Below are positions 1,435-32,636 of a stretch of 64,000 nucleotides of DNA, in pieces. Origin of the DNA: an uncultured Gemmatimonadales bacterium (lineage in GTDB: Bacteria > Gemmatimonadota > Gemmatimonadetes > Gemmatimonadales > JACORV01); assembly GCA_963835535.1 (NCBI GenBank), contig CAWIFL010000002.1:582405-646404 (forward strand), given 5' to 3'. Each line of letters opens with the position of its first letter. Position 1 is the first letter of the stretch. The translations under genes and the position numbers were made by a program. Below the pieces are notes generated by a model. It was given only the letters and a program-made list of their open reading frames with translations, made no database searches and was not told the origin of the DNA.

Positions 1435-1451
1435 TGGTCCTCGTCCCAAAG

Positions 1452-1613
1452 GCGTGAGAAGTGAGAAGAACAAGTGAGACGTGAGAGGGTGAACGGCGTG
1501 AGAGGTGAGCCGGGAAAGGCGTGAGACGGGACGTTCCCTCTCACGCAGGTCGCCCTCTCACTTCTCACGCAGTAGCCCTCTCACCTCTCACCGGTTCGTC
1601 TCACCTCTCACGC
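1452..1613. repeat. 162-nt modular inverted repeat: four direct copies of GCGTGAGAnGTGAGA followed by four inverted copies (TCTCACnTCTCACGC)
   Basis: Read directly from the rny-folD spacer. Hand pairing of arm modules gives 14/15, 15/16 and 13/14 matches. The inner stem is 12 bp with one bulge (1519-1531 against 1535-1546). Confidence 0.85.
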
Positions 1614-1616
1614 ATT

Positions 1617-3203
1617 TCACTTGGCAAACTCCACCGCCCTCGTCTCCCGGATCACGACCACCCGGATCTGCCCGGGATACTGCAACTCGCCCTCGATCTT
1701 GCGCGCGATCTCCTCGGCCAGCGCGTTCGCGCGGTCATCGTCCACGACGTCCGGCGTCACCATGATGCGGATCTCGCGGCCGGCCTGGATCGCGAAGACC
1801 TTCTCGACGCCCTGGAAGCCCGACGCGATCTCCTCGAGCTTGGTGAGCCGCTTCACGTAGCTCTCGAACGCCTCGCGGCGCGCGCCGGGCCGGGAGCCCG
1901 AGACCGCGTCGGCGGCCTGCACGATCACCGAGATCGGCGTCTCGTGCGGCACGTCGTCGTGGTGCGCGGCGATGCAGTTGATCACCACCGGCGGCTCGCC
2001 GTACTTGGTCGCCACCTCGACGCCGAGCTGGACGTGCGTGCCCTCGCTCTCGTGCGTGAGCACCTTGCCGATGTCGTGGAGCAGCGCGCCGCGCTTCGCG
2101 AGCGCCACGTCGAGCTTCAGCTCGGCGGCCATGATCCCGGCCAGCCAGGCCACCTCCTTCGAGTGCTTCAGCATGTTCTGGCCGTACGAGGTCCGGAACC
2201 GCATCCGCCCGACCAGCTTGATCATCTCGGGGTGCAGGCCGTGGATGCCGACCTCGTACGCCGCCTGCTCGCCGGCCTCCTGGATCTGCTGGTCCACGTC
2301 GGCCTGGGCCTTCTTGACGACGTCCTCGATCCGCCCGGGATGGATGCGGCCGTCGCTGATCAGCCGTTCCAGGGCGAGGCGCGCCACCTCGCGGCGCACC
2401 GGATCGAAGCACGAGACGATCACGGTGTCGGGCGTGTCGTCGATGACCACGTCCACGCCGGTCGCGGTCTCGAACGCGCGGATGTTGCGGCCCTCGCGCC
2501 CGATGATCCGCCCCTTCATCTCGTCGTTGGGCAGGGTGACCGTCGCGACCGTGCTCTCGGCGGTGTGGTCGGCCGCGATGCGCTGGATGGCGAGGGCCAC
2601 GATCTTCTTCCCCTCGCGATCGGCGTCGCGCTTCGCCTGCTCCCGCAGGTTCCGCACGAGCGCGGCGGCCTCGGACCTGGCCTCCTCCTCGATCGAGCGG
2701 ACCAGCTCCTTCTTGGCGTCCGCCGCCGACAGCCCCGCGACCGCCTCGAGCCGGCGCTTCCGGTCGGCGATCAGCGTCTGCAGCTCCGCGTCCCGCGCCT
2801 GGACCCGCTGCTCGGACTTGCCCAGCTCTCCGATCCTCGTCTCGAGCTCCCTGTCCCGCCGGTCCAGGACCTGGAGCTTCTTCTCGAGCCCGTCCTCCCG
2901 CTCCTCGAGGCGCCGCTCGATGCGGTCGATCTCCTCGCGCCGGCGGCCGACTTCGACCTCCCACGCCTCGCGGGCCTTCGCCAGCTCTTCCTTGCCGGAG
3001 AGGAGCAACGTGTTGCGGAAGGCCTCGGCGTTGGTCCGGGCGTCCGCGAGTATGCGTTCGGCGAGCGCCTCGGCGGTCGCCTTTGCGCGCACCGCCCTGC
3101 GCCGCTCCACCCAAACGCCGATGAAGAAGAAAGCGAGCCCCGCCCCCGTCCCCGTCGCCCCGATGGCCACGAGGAGGGCCGCAAAGCTGAAAGCCGTCGT
3201 CAT
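1617..3203 (-). CDS. rny: ribonuclease Y
   Basis: 528-aa ORF with an N-terminal TM helix, a long coiled coil, a KH motif ([15 protein letters not shown]) and an HD domain (LLHDIGK ... AAHHDD). Confidence 0.95.
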
Positions 3204-3601: not shown

Positions 3602-3909
3602 TTCCCCGCCTCGCTTCCCTGGTCGGCGGTGATGGGCGCCTGCTGCTCGAGGAAGTCGAGCCGCCCGACGAGCTCCGTGACCCTGAGGCGCGCCGCCTCG
3701 AGCCGCTGCTCGAGCAGACGGTTGGTCTCTTCGAGCTCCCGCAGCCGACTCGGTCCTTCCCCGCCCGACGCGCGCGAGTGATCGGAAACGCGAGCCTCGG
3801 CCGTCAGCGCCCGGCGCCGCCACGCGGCGAGCTCCTCGGCGAGGTGCCGCAGCACCTCCTCGAGCTCGCGCAGCGCGTCGAGATCAGGCCTCTCGCCTGC
3901 GGACCCCAT
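3598..3909 (-). CDS. small coiled-coil protein (ZapB-like / cell-division associated, hypothetical)
   Basis: ATG at 3909 gives 103 aa (MGSAGERPDLDALRELEEVLRHLAEELAAWRRR...LEQRLEAARLRVTELVGRLDFLEQQ) with heptad-like, Leu/Glu/Arg-rich sequence. It sits between pheT and zapA and overlaps the pheT end by 26 nt. Confidence 0.55.
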   Translation of the reverse strand: MGSAGERPDLDALRELEEVLRHLAEELAAWRRRALTAEARVSDHSRASGGEGPSRLRELEETNRLLEQRLEAARLRVTELVGRLDFLEQQAPITADQGSEAGK

Positions 3910-6247
3910 GTCGCCTTTCCACCTCCGCCAGCGCCCGAGTGAGCGCGGCCTCCACTTCCTTGTCGCGCAGCGTGCGGTCGGCGGCCCGGAACACCAGGCG
4001 CCACGCCACGCTGCGCTGCCCCGCGGCCAGGGGCGCCCCCCGGTACTCGTCGAACGGCCGGAGGGACTCCAGCAGCGCGCCGGCCCCGGCCCTGAGCGAC
4101 GCCTCCACTTCGGCCGCCGCCAGAGCGTCCGGGAGCACCAGCGCCACGTCCTGCTCGACCGCCGGCCACGCCGGCAGCGGGCGGATCCTGAGCGGCTCCC
4201 GCGCCGAGGTGCCCAGCGCCAGCTCGAAGCCGAACACCCTCGCGCCCCAGGCGGGCCGGTCGGCGGACAACTCCCCCGCCCAGCCAACCTGCTGGCCGGC
4301 GGCGTCTTTCGCAACGAGGTGGTCCCCTTGGGCCGCGATCCGTGCGTCGGGCCGGCCCTGCGCCACCGCGGCGTCGAGCAGGGTCTTGGCGTCGAACAGG
4401 TCCGCGTCCGGCGGCTTCGGCTCACTCCAGTGCGAGGGCCGCTGCGCGCCCGAGACGACACCGGCGACGTGCGGCTCCTCGCGCGGAAGCTGCTCGGCGC
4501 TCCTGTGAAATACGTGCCCGATCTCGAAGAGGCGGACGTCGCGCTGCTGCATCCGCCAGTTGTGCTCCACGCGGCGCACCAGAGCCGGCAGGAGCGCGGG
4601 CCGGAGGAACGCCTCCTCCTGGCTCAGCGGGTTTTGAATCTCGACGCAGCTGTCGTCCGCGCACGGGCCCAGGGGCACCGTCAGCGCCTCGTGCAGCCCG
4701 AGGGCGGTCAGGCTCCGCCGCAGCCGCCCCGCCTGCTGCTCGGACGGCGCGTCGGGCACGATGCCGAGGCGCTGCGGCCGAAGCTCGTCGGGGAACCGGT
4801 CGTACCCGACGATGCGGGCCACCTCCTCGATCAGGTCCACTTCCCGGGTGAGGTCGGGCCGGCCGCCGGGCACCTGGACCGCGAGCCGGTCCCCCTTGGG
4901 GCTCACCACGCACCCGAGCGCGGTGAGCACGCGCTCGATCTCGGTGCGGGGGATCTCCACGCCGAGCAGGTGGCCGACGCGCGCGTCCCGGAGGAAGATC
5001 GTGGTCGGCGGCGCGGGCGAGGGATAGACGTCCACCGGCGTGCCGTCCACCGCCCCGCCGGCCACGGCGACGATCAGCTCGAGCGCCCGCGCCAGGTTGG
5101 CGGGCAGCGCGCCCAGGTCCATCCCGCGCTCGAAGCGGTAGCTCGCCTCGGTGGACATCCCGAGCGCGCGGCGCGTGGCGCGGATGCGCCTGGGATCGAA
5201 ATACGCCGCCTCGAGGACGATGTCGGTCGTGCCGGCGGACACTTCGCTGGCCGCGCCGCCCATGACCCCGCCGACGCCCTGCGCCTCCTTCGCGTCGGCG
5301 ATCACGGTCATCGCCGGCGTGAGCGTGCGCCGGATGCCATCCAGCGTGGTGAGCAGCTCGCCGGCTCGGGCCCTCCGCGCGACCAGCGCCGGCCCCGCGA
5401 GCTTCGCGAGGTCGTAGGCGTGCATCGGCTGGCCCACCTCGAGCAGGATGTAATTGGTCGCGTCCACGACGTTGTTGATCGACCTGGAGCCGGCGGCCTC
5501 GAGCCGCATCCTGAGCCACGGCGGCGAGGGCGCGATCCTGACGCCGCGCACCACGGCGGCGGTGAAGCGCGAGCAGCCCTCCGCATCCTCGATCGTCACG
5601 CGCACGCCCGCCGTCTCGCCGGAGGCGCCGCCGGCGCGTGCGGCGCGCGGCGCGCGGGGCGCGGCGGCCTCGAGGAACGCCGGCAGCCGGACGGGCTTGG
5701 CGAGCGAGGCGCCGAGGTCCCGCGCCAGCCCGGCGTGGGAGAGCAGGTCGGGCCGGTTGGGGGTGACGTCGATCTCGAAGCGGGTGTCGGCGATCGGCAG
5801 CACCTGGAGCAGCGGGGTGCCCGGGGCCGCATCCGTCTCCAGCTCGAGGATGCCCTCGTGGTCCTCGCCGAGGCGCAGCTCGCGCGCCGAGCAGAGCATG
5901 CCCTCGCTGTACTCGCCGCGGATCTTCCGCCGTTCGAGCACGACGCCGCCGGGCAGCGTGGTGCCGACCGCGGCGAAGGGGTAGCGCTTGCCCGCCACGA
6001 CGTTCGTCGCGCCGCAGACGACCGAGAGCACCGGCCCGCCCGCGTTCACCTTGCAGAGCGAGAGCCGGTCCGCGTTCGGGTGGCGCGCCACCTCGAGCAC
6101 CTCGGCGACGACCACCTGCGCCAGGTCCTGGTGCAGCGGCTCGGCGCCCTCGACCAGCGCGCCCAGCATCGTCAGGCGCGCGCGCGTCTCGCCCGGCTCG
6201 AGCGGGGTGCCGAGCAGGTCGGAGAGCCAGCGCAGCGACGCCTTCAC
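3884..6247 (-). CDS. pheT: phenylalanine--tRNA ligase beta subunit
   Basis: ORF 3884..6697 trimmed to GTG 6247 (VKASLRWLSDLLG), which overlaps the pheS stop as GTGA. The translation upstream of that point is low-complexity Arg/Gly/Pro. The remainder is typical PheT (tRNA-binding, B3_4, B5 and FDX-ACB regions). Confidence 0.95.
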   Translation of the reverse strand: MKASLRWLSDLLGTPLEPGETRARLTMLGALVEGAEPLHQDLAQVVVAEVLEVARHPNADRLSLCKVNAGGPVLSVVCGATNVVAGKRYPFAAVGTTLPGGVVLERRKIRGEYSEGMLCSARELRLGEDHEGILELETDAAPGTPLLQVLPIADTRFEIDVTPNRPDLLSHAGLARDLGASLAKPVRLPAFLEAAAPRAPRAARAGGASGETAGVRVTIEDAEGCSRFTAAVVRGVRIAPSPPWLRMRLEAAGSRSINNVVDATNYILLEVGQPMHAYDLAKLAGPALVARRARAGELLTTLDGIRRTLTPAMTVIADAKEAQGVGGVMGGAASEVSAGTTDIVLEAAYFDPRRIRATRRALGMSTEASYRFERGMDLGALPANLARALELIVAVAGGAVDGTPVDVYPSPAPPTTIFLRDARVGHLLGVEIPRTEIERVLTALGCVVSPKGDRLAVQVPGGRPDLTREVDLIEEVARIVGYDRFPDELRPQRLGIVPDAPSEQQAGRLRRSLTALGLHEALTVPLGPCADDSCVEIQNPLSQEEAFLRPALLPALVRRVEHNWRMQQRDVRLFEIGHVFHRSAEQLPREEPHVAGVVSGAQRPSHWSEPKPPDADLFDAKTLLDAAVAQGRPDARIAAQGDHLVAKDAAGQQVGWAGELSADRPAWGARVFGFELALGTSAREPLRIRPLPAWPAVEQDVALVLPDALAAAEVEASLRAGAGALLESLRPFDEYRGAPLAAGQRSVAWRLVFRAADRTLRDKEVEAALTRALAEVERRHGVRRREA

Positions 6248-10279: not shown

Positions 10280-11508
10280 GGGTCGTCCCGCCGCAGCGGC
10301 ATCGTCATGCAGCGCGGCCCGCCGCCGCCGCGCACCAGCTCGCTCCCCCGGATGGCGATCACCGCCTTCTCCCCGTCGGCCACGTCCTGCTCCCCCTTGA
10401 GCAGCTTCGCGGCCGGCACGATCCGGTAGCCGGCCTTCGCCATCTCGGCCAACGTCGCCTCGTTGCGTTCGTACGCGACCAGGACGCCGGGGCGCACCGA
10501 CAACACGTTGCAGGCCGAGCCCCACTGTTCCCGCTCCTGGTCGGCGCGGCGCGCGCCGCCGCAGAAGACCGGCTCCAGCGGCAGGTCCACCGCGGCCAGT
10601 GCCGCGAACAGGTTCGGCGTCTCGCGCATCCCCGCCTCGCCCTTGCGCCGGTGCAGCACCGCGAGCCGCTCCGGCCCCACGCAGTGCGGCGGATAGACGA
10701 GGCACCGCTCGCGGTCCATCTGGTTGAAGATCATGTCGAGGTGGATCGCCGTCGGCTCCTTCGGCAGGACGACGACGATCACGTCCCGCACGCCGCACCG
10801 CTCGAACAGCAGCTCGGTGAGATGGTCCAGCGCCGCGGGCGAGGAGCGCTCCGAGAAGCCGAGGACGACGAGGTCGGCGCGCAGCGGATGCACGTCCCCG
10901 CCCTCCAGCGTGTAGTTGAGCCGCTTCTCCTCGGAGCCGTCGTACAGGATGCCGGCGTTCTCGAACGCCGGATGGTGCCGGAACAGCGCCGAGATGAGCA
11001 GCTCCTCCGTCCAGCGCGCCCCATACCGCATCGAGCCCACGATGGCGTGGTCGCCGATCACCATCCCCGCGTCGCGCGTGAAGAAGAGGTTGGGGAGCGG
11101 CGGCAGCATGTACGCGGTCTCGTTCAGGGCCGCGGCGATCGGGCCCGCCTCCTCGAGCGCGCCGGCCACGAGCACGTCCAGCAGCTCGCCGACCGGCAGG
11201 CGGGCCAGCCGCTGGGCGAGCGCATCCGACGGCACGACGTCGAGGGTGCGGCCGACCAGTGCCTCGCGCACCTCGGCGCGCTTCAGGATCTCTTCCAGGA
11301 CCGTGCGCGTCTCGAGCACGTCGGCGAAGCGCCGCAGCACGGCGACGAGCTGGCGGTGCTCCTTCCGCGCCAGCTCCAGGTCGATCACGTCGTCGTAGAG
11401 GTAGTCCTCGCGCGTTCCCGGCGTCACGGCGAGCAGCTCGGCGCCGGGCGTGTGCAGGAGCACCGCGCGCAGCGGGCCGATCTCCGAGGCGACGTGGACC
11501 CGGCTCAG
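10276..11508 (-). CDS. arcA: arginine deiminase (start codon uncertain, probably CTG 11508)
   Basis: ADI pattern: VHVASEIGPLRAVLLHTPG, FFTRDAG, C-terminal GGGGPRCMTMPLRR with the catalytic Cys. There is no ATG/GTG/TTG between the conserved SEIGPL motif and far upstream inside rex. CTG at 11508 forms a CTGA overlap with the rex stop and gives 410 aa. Confidence 0.85.
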   Translation of the reverse strand: MSRVHVASEIGPLRAVLLHTPGAELLAVTPGTREDYLYDDVIDLELARKEHRQLVAVLRRFADVLETRTVLEEILKRAEVREALVGRTLDVVPSDALAQRLARLPVGELLDVLVAGALEEAGPIAAALNETAYMLPPLPNLFFTRDAGMVIGDHAIVGSMRYGARWTEELLISALFRHHPAFENAGILYDGSEEKRLNYTLEGGDVHPLRADLVVLGFSERSSPAALDHLTELLFERCGVRDVIVVVLPKEPTAIHLDMIFNQMDRERCLVYPPHCVGPERLAVLHRRKGEAGMRETPNLFAALAAVDLPLEPVFCGGARRADQEREQWGSACNVLSVRPGVLVAYERNEATLAEMAKAGYRIVPAAKLLKGEQDVADGEKAVIAIRGSELVRGGGGPRCMTMPLRRDDP

Positions 11509-12173
11509 GGCGACCCCCGGGTCAGCGCGTAGCTGAGGCCTTCGAGCTCCATCGCCATGTTCACGTCGGTGACCGCCACGTGGGGCGGCACCGTCAGGGC
11601 CACCGGCGCGAAGTTGAGCAGGGCCCGCACGCCTCCGCGCACCAGCCGGTCGGCGAGCACCTGCGCCGCGTCCGCGGGCGTGCCGATCACGGCGATGTCG
11701 GCCGGCTCCGCCGCCAGGTCGGCCTCGAGCGTGTCCACGCTCTTCACCGCGAGCCCGTCCACTTTGGTGCCGATGCGGGCCGGATCCGCGTCGTACACCG
11801 CCACGACGTCGAACCCGCGGGCGCGGAATCCCGGATAGGCCGCCAGCGCGGAGCCGATCCGCCCCGCCCCCAGCAGGATCACCCGGTAGTGCCGGACGAG
11901 GCCGAGGATCTCGCGCAGCCGCGCCGCGAGGTGCGCCACGCCGTAGCCCACGCCGCGGCGTCCGAACGAGCCGAAGAAGGAGAGGTCCTTGCGCACCTGC
12001 GCCGACGAGGCGCCGCCGCGCCGCGCCAGATCGGCGGAGGAAACCGTGGTCTGGCCCCGGCGCTCGCATTCGTCGAGGAACTGGAGGTACAGCGACATCC
12101 TCCGGACGGTCGAATCCGCAACGGCGCGCAGCGGTGGCACTCGTGTCCTTCCCGGATCGAGCGGGCGGCGCAT
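11505..12173 (-). CDS. rex: redox-sensing transcriptional repressor Rex
   Basis: 222 aa with an N-terminal winged helix (RRMSLYLQFLDE...VSSADLA...QVRKDLSFFGSFGRRGVGY) and a Rossmann fold (ILLGAGRIGSAL). Confidence 0.9.
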   Translation of the reverse strand: MRRPLDPGRTRVPPLRAVADSTVRRMSLYLQFLDECERRGQTTVSSADLARRGGASSAQVRKDLSFFGSFGRRGVGYGVAHLAARLREILGLVRHYRVILLGAGRIGSALAAYPGFRARGFDVVAVYDADPARIGTKVDGLAVKSVDTLEADLAAEPADIAVIGTPADAAQVLADRLVRGGVRALLNFAPVALTVPPHVAVTDVNMAMELEGLSYALTRGSP

Positions 12174-12218
12174 CGGAGGCGTCGTGCGCGGGTCGGCCCG
12201 CGTCCGGCGCGCCCTGTC

Positions 12219-12236
12219 TCGTGAATGGATTCACGA
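12219..12236. promoter_or_regulatory. candidate Rex operator (ROP-like palindrome)
   Basis: TCGTGAATGGATTCACGA has the GTGAA-N4-TTCAC core of Rex operators. It lies 46 nt upstream of the rex ATG and overlaps the rsmA stop codon. Confidence 0.6.
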
Positions 12237-13004
12237 AGCTAGACGAGGCCCCAGAGCGCGGGCAAGGGCCACCAGCTGCTCCGGCGGGAGCACCTCGACG
12301 CGCGCGCCGGGCGCCACGCCCACCTGGACCAGGAGGCGCTCCGCCTCCGGGCGCTCGATGCCGAAGGCCTCGTGCAGCGTGCGCGCGAGCTGCTGGCGCC
12401 GGCGCTGGAACGCCGCCCGGATCAGCCGCCGCACCCGCCGCTCCTCCTCGAGCGAGGCGACCAGCGGCGCCGCCCGCGGCGTGAGCCGGACCAGGGCGGA
12501 GTCCACCCGCGGCTTCGGCCGGAAGGCGCCGGCCTTCACCGTGAACAGCCGCTCCACGGTCGCGACCAGCTGAACGCCGGCCGTGAGCGCGCCCCAGGTC
12601 CGCCCGCCGGGCTCGGCGGCGAGCCGGTCTGCGACCTCACGCTGCACGAGGAAGACGATCCGGGCCGGACGCGGCGGCTGGAGGGCCCGCTCGATCAGCG
12701 GCGACGTGATCTGGTAGGGGATGTTGCCGCAGACGACGTCGGCGGCGGGCCACGGCACCTCGAGCGCGTCGCCGGCGACGATCCGCACGTTGCTTCCGCT
12801 CGACTCCGCCAGCGCCGCCGCGAGACGCCGGTCGGCCTCGATCGCGACGACCTGCGCCGCGCGGACCGCGAGCGCGCGGGTCAGCGTGCCCTTCCCCGGC
12901 CCGATCTCCAGCACGGTCTCGTCCGGCCCGCCGACCGCGGCATCGGCGATCCGGTCGAGGATCGAGGGATCGAAGAGGAAGTGCTGGCCGAGGCGCGCGC
13001 CCAC
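12231..13004 (-). CDS. rsmA: 16S rRNA (adenine1518/1519-N6)-dimethyltransferase
   Basis: 257 aa: GQHFLFD, LEIGPGKGTLT, GNIPYQITSP. Confidence 0.93.
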   Translation of the reverse strand: MGARLGQHFLFDPSILDRIADAAVGGPDETVLEIGPGKGTLTRALAVRAAQVVAIEADRRLAAALAESSGSNVRIVAGDALEVPWPAADVVCGNIPYQITSPLIERALQPPRPARIVFLVQREVADRLAAEPGGRTWGALTAGVQLVATVERLFTVKAGAFRPKPRVDSALVRLTPRAAPLVASLEEERRVRRLIRAAFQRRRQQLARTLHEAFGIERPEAERLLVQVGVAPGARVEVLPPEQLVALARALGPRLAS

Positions 13005-13005
13005 G

Positions 13006-14604
13006 TCAGCGGCGCAGCAGGACCAGCGTCCGGTCGTCCGTCGCCACGTGACCGGAGAAATCCTCGACGTCGTGGAAGACGGCGTCCACGATCTCCGGCG
13101 CGGGCCGCGCGGCGTGGGCGCGCACCAGGTCGAGAAGCCGTTCCTCGCCGTAGGCTGCGCCGGCGGCGTTGCACGACTCGGTGAGCCCGTCGGTGAAGAG
13201 GCAGAGCAGGTCCGCGTCGCGGCGCCACGCGACCTCGGCCCCGCCGATCTCCCGGTCGCGCGCGAGGCCGAACGGGGGCGCCGTCGCCCGGAGCCGGCGC
13301 GGCACGCCGTCGCCGCCCGGGACCAGGAAAGCCTGCGGGTGGCCGGCGTTCGCGTAGCGCAGCACCCCGTGCTCGGCGTCCACGACGCCGTAGAAGAGCG
13401 ACACGAACATCTCGGTGCGCTCCAGCTCGTCGCCCAGGAGCTGGAGCAGGCGGTTGAGCGCCTCCTGCGGCGTCGCCGCCGACTGCGCGAGCACGTTCGC
13501 CGCCGAGATCGTGTTCGCCATCAGCAGCGCCGCGCCCAGGCCGTGGCTCGAGACGTCGCCGATCATCATCCCGACCGCGCCGCCCGCGAGCGGGATGACG
13601 TCGAAGAAGTCCCCGCCGATGGACTCCGCGCTCTGGCAGCGGGCGCCCACGTTGCCGACGCCCGCCAGCAGCGGCGCGCTCGGCAGGAGGGCGAGCTGGA
13701 GGTTCTGCGCCGCGGCCAGCTCGGTGGACATCCGCTCGCGGTGCTTCTCTTCCGCGGCCAGCCGCGAGTTCTCGATCGCCGCGCCCACCTGGTTGGCGAT
13801 GGCCATCACCAGCTTCTTGTTGCCGGCCGAGAACGCGTCCTCGCCGAGGCGGTCGGTGAGGTTGATCACGCCGACCGGCCGGGCCGCGCCGTTCTCGCTC
13901 GCGTACATGATGGGCACGGACAGGAACGACTGGCCGTGGTAGTCGCGCCCCGTGGGGCACCCGGGATTCGGCGCGGGATCGCTGGGGTCGTACGTGATCG
14001 CCTCGCGGGCGCGGAAGACCTGGGCGGCGATGCTGCACTCGTCGTCCACCCGCACCGCCTGGAGCTGCGCGACGTCGAAGCCGCGGCCGGCGACGATCCG
14101 GAGCACGCCGGCCTCCTCGTCGTACACCATGATCGAGGCGCGGCGCGCCCCCACCACGTCCGAGACCTCGCGCACGATCCGGTGGGCCGCCTCCTCGAGC
14201 GCCACCGTCCGCCCGAGGATCTCGCTGATGGTGTAGAGGAGGTCGATCTCCTCGTAGCGCGCCGCCAGCTCCGCCGCGACCTGCCCCGCCTCGCGCTCGG
14301 CGGCGAGCGCCTCCGCGACGATCTTCGCGGCCGCCTGCGCCCGCTGCGGGCGCGTCTTCTCCCTGGAGCCGTCGGGGCCGAGCTGGACCCAGGTGCCGGG
14401 GACGCCGGGCACGGGCTCGAGCCACGCCGATCCCTTCCGCGCCTGGATCGCGTGCCCCACGGTGCCTTCGAGCTGCGGCCACCACGCCCCGTGCTCGCCC
14501 GAGAGCGCGATCGCGCGCTGGCGACCCGCCTCCTGACGCCACAGGCGGACGTCTCCCCCGGTCAGCTCCTGGAGTGCGGCGAGAAGAGTGTCGAGACGGC
14601 TCAG
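13006..14604 (-). CDS. GAF-domain PP2C/SpoIIE-family serine phosphatase (RsbU-like); start uncertain
   Basis: C-terminal PPM domain (GGDFFDV, MMIGDVSSHG, LFTDGLTE, ATDDRTLVLL), preceded by a GAF-like region. The upstream part of ORF 13006..15024 overlaps rsbW in another frame. Candidate starts are CTG 14604 (CTGA overlap with the kinase stop) or GTG 14460. Confidence 0.8.
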   Translation of the reverse strand: MSRLDTLLAALQELTGGDVRLWRQEAGRQRAIALSGEHGAWWPQLEGTVGHAIQARKGSAWLEPVPGVPGTWVQLGPDGSREKTRPQRAQAAAKIVAEALAAEREAGQVAAELAARYEEIDLLYTISEILGRTVALEEAAHRIVREVSDVVGARRASIMVYDEEAGVLRIVAGRGFDVAQLQAVRVDDECSIAAQVFRAREAITYDPSDPAPNPGCPTGRDYHGQSFLSVPIMYASENGAARPVGVINLTDRLGEDAFSAGNKKLVMAIANQVGAAIENSRLAAEEKHRERMSTELAAAQNLQLALLPSAPLLAGVGNVGARCQSAESIGGDFFDVIPLAGGAVGMMIGDVSSHGLGAALLMANTISAANVLAQSAATPQEALNRLLQLLGDELERTEMFVSLFYGVVDAEHGVLRYANAGHPQAFLVPGGDGVPRRLRATAPPFGLARDREIGGAEVAWRRDADLLCLFTDGLTESCNAAGAAYGEERLLDLVRAHAARPAPEIVDAVFHDVEDFSGHVATDDRTLVLLRR

Positions 14605-19862: not shown

Positions 19863-21632
19863 TCAATGTCGTGGTTCCTGCTCCGCCTTCAGCGCCTTGC
19901 GCCGGAAGCGCATCGCGCCCCCGGAGATGAGCGCACGCTTCTCGTTCATCAGCTCGTCCTTCTCCGCCGCACCCGCCAGGCCGATCAGGCGGTCGATCTC
20001 CTCCAGGCGCTCGCGCTTCGGGCGATCCAGCACCCAGGCGATCGCCTGCACCAGGTCCACCTCGGGTTCGGGCCGTTCGTACGGCGCGGAGGCGAGCCGC
20101 TCCCACGTGTCGCGCTCGGCGCCCGCGTCCGGCGGGCCCGCGCCCGCGTAGAGCAGCTCCGCCAGGCGGCGGTAGACCGGATGCCGGAACTCGGTGGCCG
20201 GCAGCTCCGCCTTGACCCGGGCGACGTTCTCGGGCACCGCGAGCATCAGGTGGACCAGCGTGCGCTCGGTGGGGATCTCGGTGACCGGCCGCCCCGCGGG
20301 TTGCCGCTCGGGCTCGGGGCCGGCTCGCCCCCGTGCCCCCGTGCCCCCGTGCCCCCGTGCCTCCTGTCTTCCCACCTCCTGCTCCAGCACTTCCTTCCCC
20401 ACCCCGCTCCACTCGGCCGCGCGCGACATGTACAGCTCCCGCGTAATCGGGTCCTGCGCCGCGCGGATCGTGGGCAGCAGGCGGTCGAGCGCCTCGCGCC
20501 GGCCCTCGAGCGTGCCCGCCAGCCCCTTGCGGTCGAGCAGCTGGATCTTGCGCTCGAAGACGTCCACGGCCGCGTCGAGCAGGGCCTTGAACGCCTCCGC
20601 GCCGCCGCGCCGCACCAGGGTGTCGGGATCCTCTCCGGAGGGGAGCGTCACCAGGCTCACGCTCGCGCCCTGCCGGAGCAGCTCGTCGGCGTTGCGGAAC
20701 GAGGACTTCTGCCCCGGCGCGTCGGCGTCGTAGGCCAGCGCCACCTGCTTGGTGTAGCGCCGGAGGAGCCGCGCCTGCTCCGGCGTCAGCGAGGTGCCGA
20801 GCGGCGCGACCGCGTTCAGGATCCCCGCGGTCTGGAGCCGGATGGCGTCCACGTACCCTTCGACGAGGACGGCGAGCGACTCGGTGCGGATGGCGGTGCG
20901 GGCCCGGTCCAGGGCGTAGAGCAGCGTGCCCTTGTGGAAGACCGGCGTCTCGGGCGAGTTGAGGTACTTCGGCTCGCCCTCGCCGAGGAGGCGCCCGCCG
21001 AACCCGACCACGCGCCCGCGCACGTCGGCGATCGGGAAGATGAGGCGGCCGCGGAACCGCGGGACGACCGACTTGTCGTCCCGCTCCGTCACCAGGCCGG
21101 CCTTCCGCACCACGTCGTCCTCGACGCCGAGCCCCTTCAGCGCCTCGAGCAGCTCCTCGCCGCGCGCGGGCGCGAAGCCGAGCTGGTACTGGTCGCGCAC
21201 CGCCTCGTCCAGCTCGCGGCCGTCGAGGTAGTCGCGCGCCCCCTTCGCGTCGGGGGCCTCGCGGAGCCGCCGCGCGAACCAGTCGGCGGCCGTGCTCAGC
21301 GCGGAGTACAGCGGCTCGTTCGGGTCGGGCCCCGCGGTGCGCACGTCCGGCACGGCGATCCCCACCTTCGCCGCGATCTCGCGCACCGCCGTCGGATAGT
21401 CCAGCCCGAACCGCTTCATCAGGTAGGTGAAGACGTCGCCCGACTCGTGGCAGACGAAGCAGTGGTACATCTGCTTCCGCGGCACGACCGAGAAGTTGCG
21501 ATGCGTCCCGCCGTGGAACGGGCACGGCGCGCGCCAGTCGCTCCCCGTGCGCTTGAGCTCCACCGACTCGCCGATGATGGCGACGATGTCGGCCGCGTCG
21601 CGGATCTGCTCGATCAGCTCGGGAGCGATCAC
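19863..21632 (-). CDS. dnaG: DNA primase
   Basis: 589 aa with a zinc finger (CPFHGGTHRNFSVVPRKQMYHCFVCHESGD), a TOPRIM domain (LVEGYVDAI, AYDADAPG) and a C-terminal helicase-binding region. Confidence 0.94.
   Translation of the reverse strand: MIAPELIEQIRDAADIVAIIGESVELKRTGSDWRAPCPFHGGTHRNFSVVPRKQMYHCFVCHESGDVFTYLMKRFGLDYPTAVREIAAKVGIAVPDVRTAGPDPNEPLYSALSTAADWFARRLREAPDAKGARDYLDGRELDEAVRDQYQLGFAPARGEELLEALKGLGVEDDVVRKAGLVTERDDKSVVPRFRGRLIFPIADVRGRVVGFGGRLLGEGEPKYLNSPETPVFHKGTLLYALDRARTAIRTESLAVLVEGYVDAIRLQTAGILNAVAPLGTSLTPEQARLLRRYTKQVALAYDADAPGQKSSFRNADELLRQGASVSLVTLPSGEDPDTLVRRGGAEAFKALLDAAVDVFERKIQLLDRKGLAGTLEGRREALDRLLPTIRAAQDPITRELYMSRAAEWSGVGKEVLEQEVGRQEARGHGGTGARGRAGPEPERQPAGRPVTEIPTERTLVHLMLAVPENVARVKAELPATEFRHPVYRRLAELLYAGAGPPDAGAERDTWERLASAPYERPEPEVDLVQAIAWVLDRPKRERLEEIDRLIGLAGAAEKDELMNEKRALISGGAMRFRRKALKAEQEPRH
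20328..20359 (-). repeat. octamer microsatellite (CCCCCGTG)x4 inside dnaG; sense strand (CACGGGGG)x4
   Basis: Four perfect 8-nt units read directly. Translated as ARGHGGTGARG in the primase linker. Confidence 0.9.
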
Positions 21633-24406: not shown

Positions 24407-24410
24407 GTAC

Positions 24411-24437
24411 GAGGGGTTAGGGGTCCCCTGACCCCTC
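24411..24437 (-). terminator. GGGG-heptamer hairpin after hinT (short member of the NTAGGGG repeat family)
   Basis: GAGGGGTTAGGGG-T-CCCCTGACCCCTC has 13-nt arms that are complementary except for one G.U position. It starts 7 nt after the hinT stop and has no U-tract. Confidence 0.5.
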
Positions 24438-24443
24438 TCCTTC

Positions 24444-24782
24444 TCATCCCGGAGGCCAGTGCATCGCCCGGCCGCCGAGCACGTGGACGTGGATGTGCGG
24501 CACGGTCTGCCCCGCCTCGGCCTTGGTGTTGAGGACCACCCGGTAGCCGCGGGCGGCCACCTTCTGCTGGCGGGCCACTTCCCGCGCCGCCACGAGCAGC
24601 TCGCCGAGGAGCGCCACGTCCTCGGCCTCGTTCAGGGACTCCACGTGCAGCGTCGGGATCACGAGCACGTGCACCGGCGCCTGCGGATTGATGTCCTTGA
24701 TGGCGATCACCGTGGGGGTCCTGTAGACGACGTCGGCCTTGACCTCGCCCTTGATGATCTTGCAGAACAGGCAGTCGTTCAC
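24444..24782 (-). CDS. hinT: HIT-family (histidine triad) nucleotide hydrolase
   Basis: 112 aa: CLFCKII, HIHVHVLGG. Confidence 0.9.
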   Translation of the reverse strand: MNDCLFCKIIKGEVKADVVYRTPTVIAIKDINPQAPVHVLVIPTLHVESLNEAEDVALLGELLVAAREVARQQKVAARGYRVVLNTKAEAGQTVPHIHVHVLGGRAMHWPPG

Positions 24783-27751: not shown

Positions 27752-28924
27752 TTAGATACTGGCGACCAACTCGTCTAGGCGCAGCCAGCCCTGGGGGGTA
27801 AGACGCGCACGGGGGCACGGAGGCACGGAGGCCCGGGCGCCGCCGGAATCGGACGCACCGACGCACCGACGCACGGACGCACGGGCAGGTATTGGCTCCA
27901 CTTCCAGAACGGCCCAGCCGGCAGCTACCCAGCGCTCCAGCGTCTCGAGGAGCTTGGCCGGACAGGGATCCGGCAGCGCGATCCCGCGCCGCGTCCTCAG
28001 GCCGAGGTACAGCTGCTCCAGCCGGCGCTGGTGGTGGTTCAGGATCTCGTGCCCGGCCATCGGCGTCCTCCCCTGCTCCAGCTTCTCCTGCCACCGCACG
28101 TACGTCGGCTCGTTCCACCACCGGCTCACGCCGTCGAAGCTGTGGGCCGCGGGGCCCAGGCCGAGGTACGGCTCCAGCTGCCAGTAAGCGCGGTTGTGCA
28201 CCGCCTCCCGGCCCGCGCGCGCCGCATTCGACACTTCGTAGAACACGTACCCGGCGGCGCCGAGACATTCGTGCGCCAGCAGGTACTCCTCCTCGTAGCG
28301 CTCGTCCTCCGCGGGCGCGACGTCGCCGCGGTCCACCTGGCGGAACAGCGGCGTCCCGTGCTCGACCGTGAGCCCGTAGAGCGAGACGTGATCCGGCTCC
28401 AGCGCGATCGCCGCCTCGAGGTCGCGCCGCCAGTCGCGCCGCAGATCGGGAGGGAGCGCGAAGATCAGGTCGAGCGAGAGGTTGCCGATCCCGGCGGCGC
28501 GCGCCGTGCGCACCGCCGCGCCGATCCGGGCCGCGTCGTGGGTCCGGTGCATCCAGGCCAGCACGCGGTCGTCGAACGACTGCGCGCCGAGCGAGATGCG
28601 GTTCACGCCGGCCGTGGCCCAGGCCCGCACGCTCTCCGGGGTGACGTCCTCGGGGTTCGCCTCGAGCGTGAACTCGGCGAGGGCGGGCTCGAAGGTGAGC
28701 AGTCGCGCCAGCGCCGCGATCCCGTCGCCGCCCAGCCGCGAGGGCGTCCCGCCGCCCAGGTACAGGGTCTCGACCGCCCGCGCGCCCGTCAGCGCGACCT
28801 CGCGCCCGAGCGCGGCCAGGTACGCGGCGACCGGCACGGTGCGCCGCACCGCGATGCTGAAGTCACAGTAGGTGCAGCGCCGCCCGCAGAACGGCACGTG
28901 CACGTACAGATGGCGCGTCGTCAC
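27752..28924 (-). CDS. hemW: radical SAM heme chaperone HemW (HemN-like, oxygen-independent coproporphyrinogen oxidase family)
   Basis: GTG 28924 (VTTRHLYVHVPFCGRRCTYCDF...) carries the CxxxCxxC radical SAM motif. GTGA overlap with the dprA stop. The C-terminus carries a repeat-encoded insertion. Confidence 0.9.
   Translation of the reverse strand: MTTRHLYVHVPFCGRRCTYCDFSIAVRRTVPVAAYLAALGREVALTGARAVETLYLGGGTPSRLGGDGIAALARLLTFEPALAEFTLEANPEDVTPESVRAWATAGVNRISLGAQSFDDRVLAWMHRTHDAARIGAAVRTARAAGIGNLSLDLIFALPPDLRRDWRRDLEAAIALEPDHVSLYGLTVEHGTPLFRQVDRGDVAPAEDERYEEEYLLAHECLGAAGYVFYEVSNAARAGREAVHNRAYWQLEPYLGLGPAAHSFDGVSRWWNEPTYVRWQEKLEQGRTPMAGHEILNHHQRRLEQLYLGLRTRRGIALPDPCPAKLLETLERWVAAGWAVLEVEPIPARASVRRCVGASDSGGARASVPPCPRARLTPQGWLRLDELVASI
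27803..27887. repeat. 8-nt periodic GCACGG-type repeat array inside the 3' end of hemW
   Basis: Plus strand reads GCGCACGG GGGCACGG AGGCACGG AGGCCCGG ... ACGCACCG ACGCACCG ACGCACGG ACGCACGG. It shares GCACGGAGGCAC with 33617-33628 and GGCACGGGGGCAC with the dnaG array. Confidence 0.8.
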
Positions 28925-31589: not shown

Positions 31590-32636
31590 TCATCGGGCGC
31601 GCTCCAGGGAAACGCGGGCCTCCAGGTGGCCCACTTCCTCGCCCAAGGTGTTCTTGATCCGCGGCGAACGGAAGGAGTCCGCCACGCGCACGGCGCCGGG
31701 CGCCAGGATCTCCAGGAAGGCGAGCAGGGCCGGCCGCGCGGCATCCATGTCGCCGTCCTCCACCTTCATCGCCAGGCCGAGGCGCGCGCCCGGAAGCGCC
31801 GCGCAGTAGACGCCGTCGGCGCCGACCTTGGTGATGACCGCGCCGCGGGAGGAAGCGATGACTTCGGTGCAGAGGCGGCCGGTGCCGGCGATCAGGAATG
31901 GCTCTGCAGTCACGGCGCGGATGACACGGAGGGCCGCGCGGGAGGGGTTAGGGGCTAGGGAGTAAGGATTAGGGCCCGCCGCGCCGACTTCCCTAACCCC
32001 TAACCCCTCACCCCTAGCCCCTAGTCGTGCATACGCCAGCGCCATGTTGCGCAGAGGCAGCGCGTAGGAGACCACGCCGCACCCATCCGTGCCCTGCCCG
32101 ATCTTGTCTTCGGCCACGCCCGTCCACGCCGCCACTTCCTCGAGCAGGCGCCGCTGGACCGGATGCTCCGCCTTCCGGTAGTTCGCCGTCGGCCAGCCGT
32201 GATGGCGCGCGAGCGCGAGCATCGCGGCGTGCTTCCCCGAGCAGTTGCTGTGGAGCTTGCGCGGCTTCTCACCGCGGCCGGCCATCTCGCGCGCGATGGT
32301 GGGCGAGAGCGACGGATGGGGGCCGCATTCCAGGTCCTGCTCCGCGCAGCCGGCTTTCTCGAGCAGGCTCTGGGCGACGGCGAGGTGGCGCGGCTCCCCG
32401 TTGTGCGAGGCGCAGGCGAGCGCGATCTCGGCGTCCGTAATGCCGAGCGCGTCGGCGCCGCCCTCCTCGATCAGTGGCAGGACCTGGATCAGCTTGGCGC
32501 ACGAGCGCCAGTACGTCACCAGATCGCTGTCGCCCGTCGCGCTCACGAGCCTTCCGTCCGCATCCACGACGGCGGCGGAAACCCGATGGCGCGACTCGAC
32601 AATGTGGCCGCGGATGGCGTCTACGGTGGATGTCAC
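31590..32636 (-). CDS. asparaginase II family protein (PF06089-like) carrying an in-frame repeat insertion
   Basis: 348 aa: RSCAKLIQVLP, ASHNGEPRH, SNCSGKHAAML, GTDGCGV, TKVGADGVY, LAMKVEDG. Confidence 0.85.
   Translation of the reverse strand: MTSTVDAIRGHIVESRHRVSAAVVDADGRLVSATGDSDLVTYWRSCAKLIQVLPLIEEGGADALGITDAEIALACASHNGEPRHLAVAQSLLEKAGCAEQDLECGPHPSLSPTIAREMAGRGEKPRKLHSNCSGKHAAMLALARHHGWPTANYRKAEHPVQRRLLEEVAAWTGVAEDKIGQGTDGCGVVSYALPLRNMALAYARLGARGEGLGVREVGAAGPNPYSLAPNPSRAALRVIRAVTAEPFLIAGTGRLCTEVIASSRGAVITKVGADGVYCAALPGARLGLAMKVEDGDMDAARPALLAFLEILAPGAVRVADSFRSPRIKNTLGEEVGHLEARVSLERAR
31941..32024. repeat. 84-nt heptamer dyad element (NTAGGGG-type units, 16-nt spacer, inverted units) inside the asparaginase CDS
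   Basis: Left arm 31941-31974 is GGAGGGGTTAGGGGCTAGGGAGTAAGGATTAGGG. Right arm 31991-32024 is CCCTAACCCCTAACCCCTCACCCCTAGCCCCTAG. By hand, 24 of 34 positions are complementary. Confidence 0.9.

Follow-up and report, generated by a model that had tools for sequence, protein, structure and literature searches.

A translated heptamer-repeat dyad in an asparaginase gene of a Gemmatimonadales bacterium, probably changing by slippage, deletion and recombination rather than by transposition

Introduction

How does a long inverted repeat built of seven-nucleotide units come to lie in frame within a conserved enzyme gene, and by what process does it change there? The question is raised by a 64,000-nt stretch of the genome of an uncultured Gemmatimonadales bacterium (contig CAWIFL010000002.1 of assembly GCA_963835535.1, positions 582,405 to 646,404), called the window below. 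Its gene for a class-3 L-asparaginase carries an 84-nt block in which two 34-nt runs of GGGGYTA-type heptamers flank a 16-nt spacer. A preliminary description, made from the sequence, likened this block to the Rickettsia palindromic elements (RPEs). We consider it likely that the block is instead a translated, intragenic dyad of heptamer simple sequence repeats (SSRs), whose evolution involves slippage, deletion, recombination between alleles and homogenisation of the arms, and not a transposable element like an RPE or a miniature inverted-repeat transposable element (MITE). Natural alleles of the gene carry this reading: five repeat units at one site, a 7-nt insertion/deletion (indel), a deletion remnant and an apparent mosaic indicate microsatellite-type change, not transposition.

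Paired heptamer arrays have been described in Xanthomonas, where Rehm et al. (2015; PMC4692102) counted about 185 GGGAATC heptamer repeats per genome. Between 89 and 93% of these are intergenic, at a mean of 28 nt from the upstream open reading frame (ORF), and 7-11% overlap ORFs. Four is the preferred number of units, two arrays converge in 70-75 cases, and both length and sequence are highly variable among close species. The repeats formed G-quadruplexes in vitro, and no function or regulatory role was found. According to Mrazek (2007), as cited by Rehm et al., heptamers are over-represented and polymerase slippage favours that size. The discussion in Rehm et al. left open why the period is seven, why the arrays are paired in one orientation and what role they have.

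A heptamer dyad translated within an intact asparaginase

The host ORF (Table 1) matches PF06089 (Asparaginase_II) with E = 7e-110 and keeps the invariant residues of the family. The block starts at offset 612 of the coding sequence (CDS), in frame 0. The preliminary description was therefore correct in placing it in frame and on a codon boundary, although its residues are 205-232 and not 204-231. The layout of arms and spacer proposed there is borne out by the sequence, and the hand count of 24 complementary positions out of 34 agrees with a repeat search that returned inverted-repeat arms of 32 nt (31943-31974 and 31991-32022; 78% complementary, 16 nt apart). Tandem Repeats Finder described 31991-32023 as 4.7 copies of CCCTAAC with 88% matches, and the C-rich arm is the more degenerate of the two. 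The 14-mer CCCTAACCCCTAAC occurs 8 times at up to 3 mismatches against 1.1 expected, and GGGGNNAGGGG 8 times against 1.3 expected. As in other heptamer SSRs, there are at least two tandem units, each with a G tract of at least three. The spacer has CGGCGCGGCGG in common with the allele of one relative (L086; related loci are designated by L and a number).

Table 1. Positions of the asparaginase gene, the parts of its heptamer dyad and two further heptamer elements in the window
Feature	Position	Strand	Description
Host gene	31590..32636	-	Class-3 (R. etli-type) L-asparaginase II, 348 aa, intact, PF06089
Heptamer dyad	31941..32024	-	84 nt, asparaginase codons 205-232, translated as LGARGEGLGVREVGAAGPNPYSLAPNPS
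G-rich sense-strand arm	31991..32024	-	CTAGGGG CTAGGGG TGAGGGG TTAGGGG TTAGGG; 5' arm in mRNA; + strand letters CCCTAACCCCTAACCCCTCACCCCTAGCCCCTAG
Spacer/loop	31975..31990	-	16 nt, GC-rich; + strand letters CCCGCCGCGCCGACTT
C-rich sense-strand arm	31941..31974	-	CCCTAAT CCTTACT CCCTAGC CCCTAAC CCCTCC; + strand letters GGAGGGGTTAGGGGCTAGGGAGTAAGGATTAGGG
Small GGGGTCA/GGGGTTA hairpin	24409..24439	-	Intergenic; GAGGGGTCAGGGG A CCCCTAACCCCTC
Large GTGAGAN / NTCTCAC heptamer dyad	1448..1617		170 nt, whole spacer between rny stop and folD start

The codon content of the block is foreign to its surroundings, as had been noted. Of its 28 codons, nine are of classes with fewer than 3 uses per 1000 (background 3.7%), and the GC content of third codon positions is 0.61 against 0.95 in a reference set of 2,681 codons of the window. 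Only one of the six frames through the block is open, namely the coding frame; the remaining five all contain stops. The claim that the block is an insertion between the conserved segments LAYARL and AALRVIRAV holds for the extra length, which is about 15 residues beyond the R. etli enzyme ReAIV (PDB 8CLY) and lies exactly at the block. It does not hold for the first codon: this encodes the final, conserved Leu of LAYARL, and the block is to that extent not a pure insertion. This residue, Leu205, is encoded by CTA, a codon with a count of zero in the reference set, and the CTA is part of one further heptamer unit of the array. A conserved residue written as an array unit points to spread of the array at the DNA level.

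The reading frame has also left its mark on the units. By stop-codon arithmetic, three perfect GGGGTTA units put TAG into all three frames. The third unit of the G-rich arm in the window is GGGGTGA and not GGGGTTA, and TAG is thereby kept out of frame 0. Deviant units occur at the frame-0 stop sites of other alleles as well, with CGA for TGA in L081 and GGA for TAG in L083. The purging of stops in the coding frame accounts for the degeneracy of one arm.

Folding calculations agree with the dyad structure. The predicted fold of a 96-nt sense RNA is a single long stem of -58.2 kcal/mol (z = -4.3), a stability that none of 200 shuffled sequences reached; the fold of the block as DNA is weaker (-24.9 kcal/mol, z = -2.0). 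The G-rich arm fits the G3+N1-7 x4 G-quadruplex motif by inspection, in accordance with the preliminary description, with G4N3 five times over in the sequence. G-quadruplex and hairpin would be competing structures of the block.

At the protein level, the AlphaFold2 model of the window asparaginase has a mean predicted local distance difference test (pLDDT) score of 91.5. In this model residues 207-232 form a coil between helices 195-206 and 233-244, and residues 210-226 score below 50. The model thus places the block in a predicted disordered, tolerated loop. Among 120 homologs (Gemmatimonadota wherever named), the distant ones have a constant 18-21 residues at the site, and still more distant genomes have a short loop of fixed length in which a block-like segment is absent. 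The comparison with homologs proposed earlier thus revealed no equivalent segment in 8CLY or in the distant homologs. Within the clade of the window gene (at least 63% identity), the loop ranges from 6 to 44 residues and is nearly always Gly-rich and then Pro-rich. The dyad itself is translated as a Gly/Arg-rich and then Pro-rich linker, and the enzyme is probably unharmed.

Five repeat units at one orthologous site

DNA was compared for 12 relatives and for the distant L006. A heptamer hairpin lies directly after LAYARL(G) in 11 related genes, and, together with the window, these genes use five unit types: GGGGTTA (window, L086 and L089), GGTGTCA (L081 and L087), GGGTGTA (L083, L088, L090 and L001), GGGGATT (L211 and L212) and CGGATTG (L006, at 50% amino acid identity). 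The hairpins of the alleles have minimum free energies of -44 to -72 kcal/mol. Within each allele both arms are built of the same unit, the consensus units of the two arms being 0-2 positions apart, and all alleles share with the window block the convergent orientation in which the G-rich arm is 5'. The peptides encoded at the site are unrelated between alleles (for example PNPYSLAPNP, PDTRHLTPDT and YTLPPTPYTP).

This recurrence bears on the simplest alternative, that the segment is an ordinary hypervariable protein loop in which dyad and heptamer periodicity arose by coincidence. The 6 to 44 residue range of loop lengths among homologs is what such a loop would show. The same architecture in 11 genes, the stability of the fold, the excess of the 14-mer, the extreme codon use and the near-specificity of inverted-partner arrays to period 7 (see below) effectively refute it, and we give coincidence next to no weight.

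Several alleles record individual changes. The site is empty in L084, and L084 and similar genes have 6-10 residues where the outgroup has 18-21. L085 retains a remnant, GGTGTA...CACACCCCC, that corresponds to the outer ends of a GGGTGTA dyad; since only the outer ends are left, an internal deletion is indicated. L211 (773-1827) and L212 (286-1347) share 99.4% identity over 1,055 nt; exactly one 7-nt GGGGTTG unit in the G-rich arm separates them, in a comparison between two short-read assemblies of sibling samples in which an assembly error is possible. In L211, where the unit is missing, the frame is shifted and two ORFs of 251 and 111 aa are called. Variation in unit number and sequence between close relatives, as known from other heptamer SSRs, is thus seen both in this pair and between the window and L086.

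The window gene itself appears to be a mosaic. Over the whole gene it is closest to L083 (92-94% nucleotide identity), the repeat unit of which differs from that of the window. Over CDS positions ~564-720, which comprise 50 nt of 5' flank and the block, it sides with L086. Informative sites favour L086 over L083 by 11:3 in this region and by 19:58 elsewhere (Fisher p = 2e-4), for a region that was picked post hoc and that consists in part of the hard-to-align element itself. The pattern suggests that alleles pass between strains by homologous recombination.

The most distant occupied site is that of L006 (8467-8544; genome GC 71%), a nearly perfect 77-nt CGGATTG hairpin at the same post-LAYARL codon.

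We also weighed whether the element is a structure selected within the coding sequence. Its hairpin or G-quadruplex might make translation pause between the two enzyme halves, offer a site to an RNase or, through 7-nt slippage, switch asparaginase on and off in a phase-variable manner. Every occupied allele keeps its hairpin potential despite complete turnover of the unit, and most members of the clade keep the element. The intergenic relatives described below lie at the 3' ends of genes, where a hairpin could plausibly act. However, in 8 of 10 alleles the antisense RNA is at least as stable when folded as the sense RNA, which places the complementarity in Watson-Crick pairing at the DNA level and not in G-U pairs on the mRNA; no RNA-strand-specific G-U signature, as RNA-level selection would leave, was found in the sense and antisense folds of these 10 alleles. 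Nor is the capacity for a G-quadruplex universal, the GGTGTCA and CGGATTG alleles having no G3 tracts, and several lineages have lost the element with the gene intact. No regulatory role was found for the related Xanthomonas repeats either (PMC4692102). As to a switch, the locus resembles phase-variable contingency loci in having an intragenic unit of 7 nt, a non-multiple of 3, and in the L211/L212 polymorphism, which toggles the frame so that a natural 7-nt variant turns the gene off. It differs from them in that the repeat is mid-gene, has dyad architecture and lies in a housekeeping metabolic enzyme. On balance, a selected structure seems to us unlikely.

Heptamer arrays outside the asparaginase gene

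The preliminary description had proposed a search for further copies of the heptamer array, and such copies exist. One is the small hairpin at 24409-24439 of the window, 5 nt past the stop of a HIT-family gene (24444..24782, minus strand), which has only the heptamer unit in common with the asparaginase block. A promoter and terminator scan around 24409 found no U-tailed terminator, the hairpin being without a U tract. An exact-pattern scan for GGGGYTAGGGGYTAGGG added at least 120 metagenome contigs and at least 120 IMG/VR viral contigs; about a third of the metagenome matches are telomere-like eukaryotic arrays, and these were left out of the counts. The matches listed comprise 75 bacterial-like metagenome contigs, and in 30 of these an ORF of 100 aa or longer ends no more than 30 nt upstream of the array, often with the stop codon inside the first unit. 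Where a partner arm is present in the matches listed, it is 3' rather than 5' of the G-rich arm by 20:0 in bacterial-like metagenome contigs and by 16:1 in viral contigs. Together with 24409-24439, the contigs listed show the dispersed, mainly intergenic placement near the end of an upstream ORF that is familiar from heptamer SSRs.

To place period 7 among other periods, tandem arrays with an inverted partner were scanned in 1.34 Mb comprising the window and related loci. There were 21 such arrays at period 7, against 1, 0, 2, 0, 1 and 0 at periods 5, 6, 8, 9, 10 and 11, respectively. Inverted-partner arrays are therefore nearly specific to period 7 among periods 5-11. The units of those beyond the asparaginase gene include CAGCCAT, CGTGAAT, AGTTTTT and CCGGGGA, in Gemmatimonadaceae, Pyrinomonadaceae and Blastocatellia.

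Some of the contigs deserve separate mention. In the viral contig L221 (IMGVR_UViG_3300025932_000023), two GGGGCTA dyads (3698-3790 and 4792-4885), 1.1 kb apart, are homologous in the loop (CAGCGCCYGTCCC..GCTCCGCGCC) and alike at both ends, with unrelated flanks. L100 (aa 299-305 of a 327-aa ORF) and L101 (182-205; 247 aa) contain possible in-frame GGGGYTA arrays in putative ORFs of high-GC contigs. Four eukaryotic-looking marine metagenome contigs (L114, L125, L147 and L153; GC 0.63-0.67) have TTAGGG/GGGGTTA arrays followed by CCCTAA arrays, which are G-first dyads too.

Comparison with known repeat families

The closest known systems are the heptamer SSRs of Xanthomonas (GGGAATC) and Nostoc (GGGGA(C/T)T). 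These share with the elements described here the tandem 7-nt units with G tracts, about four in number and mostly intergenic near the end of an upstream ORF, as well as convergent stem-loop pairs, units that vary between close relatives, a G-quadruplex motif and a minority of copies overlapping ORFs. The statement in the preliminary description that such an element was not known from high-GC genomes accordingly needs qualifying, as Xanthomonas has convergent pairs of G-rich heptamers, some of which overlap ORFs (PMC4692102). The window unit GGGGYTA does not match the consensus units GGGNATC or GGGGA(C/T)T, and it represents a new unit family within the architecture of Rehm et al., a convergent pair of G-rich heptamers. 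The unit of the L211/L212 allele, GGGGATT, is of the Nostoc type; most other units here (GGGGYTA, GGTGTCA and GGGTGTA) differ, and the host lineage is Gemmatimonadota. A literature search on heptamer repeats in Gemmatimonadetes returned no report. New at this locus, in comparison with the Xanthomonas and Nostoc repeats, are the complete in-frame translation within a conserved enzyme, the allelic series at one orthologous site, the frameshifting one-unit variant and the recombination mosaic.

RPEs, as they are presented in PMC10969869 (citing Ogata et al., 2000, 2002), measure about 150 bp, are scattered through many genes and are conserved both in full-length consensus and in the encoded peptide. 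The idea that the asparaginase block arose in this manner, as a pre-formed palindromic element, RPE-like or MITE-like, that transposed in frame into the gene and persists as selfish DNA, takes up the comparison with RPEs made in the preliminary description. What stands of it is the description of the block as structured, repetitive, foreign in composition, of triplet length and translated in a tolerated loop, properties that RPEs share. The presence of the same unit at 24409-24439, the dyad at the same codon in the distant L006 and the two L221 dyads with homologous loops and different flanks also speak for a mobile element. Membership of the RPEs and mobility are not supported. A blastn search of the block against 332 loci, with the 64-kb window representing the source genome, returned no full-length copy of the kind expected from an RPE consensus; all matches lie within the 34-nt arm, so that copies have nothing but the 7-nt unit in common. 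No flanking direct repeat or target-site duplication is visible at the block edges (GCACGA|CTAGGGG...CCCCTC|CCGCGC), and the encoded peptide is not conserved. A single site with five unit types is likewise not expected of one transposed element, and the changes that are observed are the gain or loss of a 7-nt unit, a deletion inside a dyad and a mosaic that points to recombination. The architecture also differs from that of a MITE, the whole block being one inverted repeat and not a core with terminal inverted repeats. We therefore regard insertion of a pre-formed element as improbable.

Other bacterial repeat families differ in architecture. Repetitive extragenic palindromes and bacterial interspersed mosaic elements are imperfect palindromes of 20-40 bp with conserved GTAG/CGTC ends, in genomes that have a RAYT gene; the tandem-heptamer architecture seen here is different. 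A scan of the whole window at the Rfam gathering thresholds returned two tRNAs only and no match at the block. The cyanobacterial short tandemly repeated repetitive sequences and the TAACTGA heptamers are closer, in being genome-wide tandem heptanucleotides that are mostly intergenic and of unknown origin. They are almost all direct, whereas an inverted pair defines the elements here. TAACTGA heptamers occur in Beggiatoaceae, Cyanobacteria and Bacteroidetes, upstream of start codons, and the BOGUAY genome has 169 direct sets and 1 indirect set (MacGregor, 2015; PMC4679880).

A proposed mechanism of repeat change under coding constraint

In the mechanism that we propose for a heptamer-SSR dyad, such dyads, in Gemmatimonadales of this lineage as in other soil bacteria and their viruses, would normally lie just behind stop codons. 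Slippage would add or remove units in 7-nt steps, the difference that separates L211 from L212, and the interior of the hairpin can be deleted, leaving a remnant such as that of L085. Template switching between the arms, with quasipalindrome correction, would keep the same unit in both. Quasipalindrome template switching is known to homogenise the arms of inverted repeats (PMC7202029), in coding sequence too (PMC8604942); it is a mutational mechanism and not an element family, and we infer, rather than observe, its action here. Within the coding frame, about one unit in three is altered so that the in-frame stop is removed, and whole alleles may be exchanged between strains by homologous recombination, as the mosaic suggests.

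A number of points weigh against this reading, in addition to the post hoc choice of the mosaic region and the possible assembly error behind the L211/L212 difference. The source genome was covered over 64 kb, and a family with a conserved core may be present elsewhere in it. L221 seems to contain a dispersed element whose core is conserved, and some dyads may spread as units. Most lineages of the clade keep a hairpin that is prone to deletion, which could mean selection or targeting. The same could be meant by the hairpin of the distant L006 at the same codon, although filtering by tolerance, with one gene examined, could also account for it. Finally, slippage and template switching do not explain the period of seven or the 5' position of the G-rich arm.

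These last features raise a further possibility, that the dyads are not by-products of slippage but were left by an unrecognised process with a step of 7 nt and a fixed polarity, the G-rich arm being 5' on both strands. Candidates would be a templated enzyme that synthesises repeats, or a break at which both 3' ends are extended reiteratively and then joined. If this were true, the post-LAYARL site would have been targeted repeatedly, with independent hits in at least two Gemmatimonadota lineages, and in the translated allelic series the process would have left its natural record under coding constraint. We regard this as a long shot.

For the heptamer-SSR reading, the value of the locus is that it holds a heptamer element to a reading frame, in a gene of which hundreds of orthologs have been sequenced. 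Slippage, deletion and allelic recombination, as well as the homogenisation of arms and the purging of stop codons, can therefore be read from natural alleles of the asparaginase gene. Heptamer dyads can evidently add disordered linkers of 20-35 residues to a conserved enzyme, and a slip of one unit can knock the asparaginase out. The class of heptamer dyads extends to Gemmatimonadota, Acidobacteriota and viral contigs. For annotation, the lesson is that such blocks would be neither transposons nor assembly errors.

Further repeats and gene content at related loci

The largest heptamer dyad of the window is the one between rny and folD (Table 1). Its RNA fold (-116 kcal/mol, z = -11.4) is far stronger than that of the asparaginase block.

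Further arrays were found in the relatives. At an orthologous intergenic site upstream of EamA, L001 (1465-1530) has a CCGGGGA array and L090 (8024-8080) a GGGGCTA/GGGGTTT array, and the window has none. In L001, TACACCC is repeated 4.5 times (13466-13503) from the stop codon of a 695-aa ORF (11381..13468); the unit is that of the asparaginase element of L001, and the locus ends before any partner arm becomes visible.

We considered whether each genome has its own unit. Two sites in the window carry GGGGTTA, and two in L001 carry TACACCC. The idea is weak, however, as the asparaginase gene of L090 has GGGTGTA but the array upstream of EamA in that genome has GGGGCTA, and GTGAGAN units are present in the window too.

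The interval between EamA and the asparaginase gene varies in gene content. A PIN gene and an antitoxin-like gene lie between the two in L081 (9214-9953), L085 (1352-2040) and L086 (302-1038). The pair is absent from L087, L090 and the window, where about 50 nt separate EamA from the asparaginase gene.

Lastly, the window contains direct repeats of 8 nt without an inverted partner at two places. At 27805-27885, which is likely intergenic, GCACGGAG repeats are followed by GACGCACC repeats, and at 20327-20361 GCCCCCGT is repeated perfectly 4.4 times.

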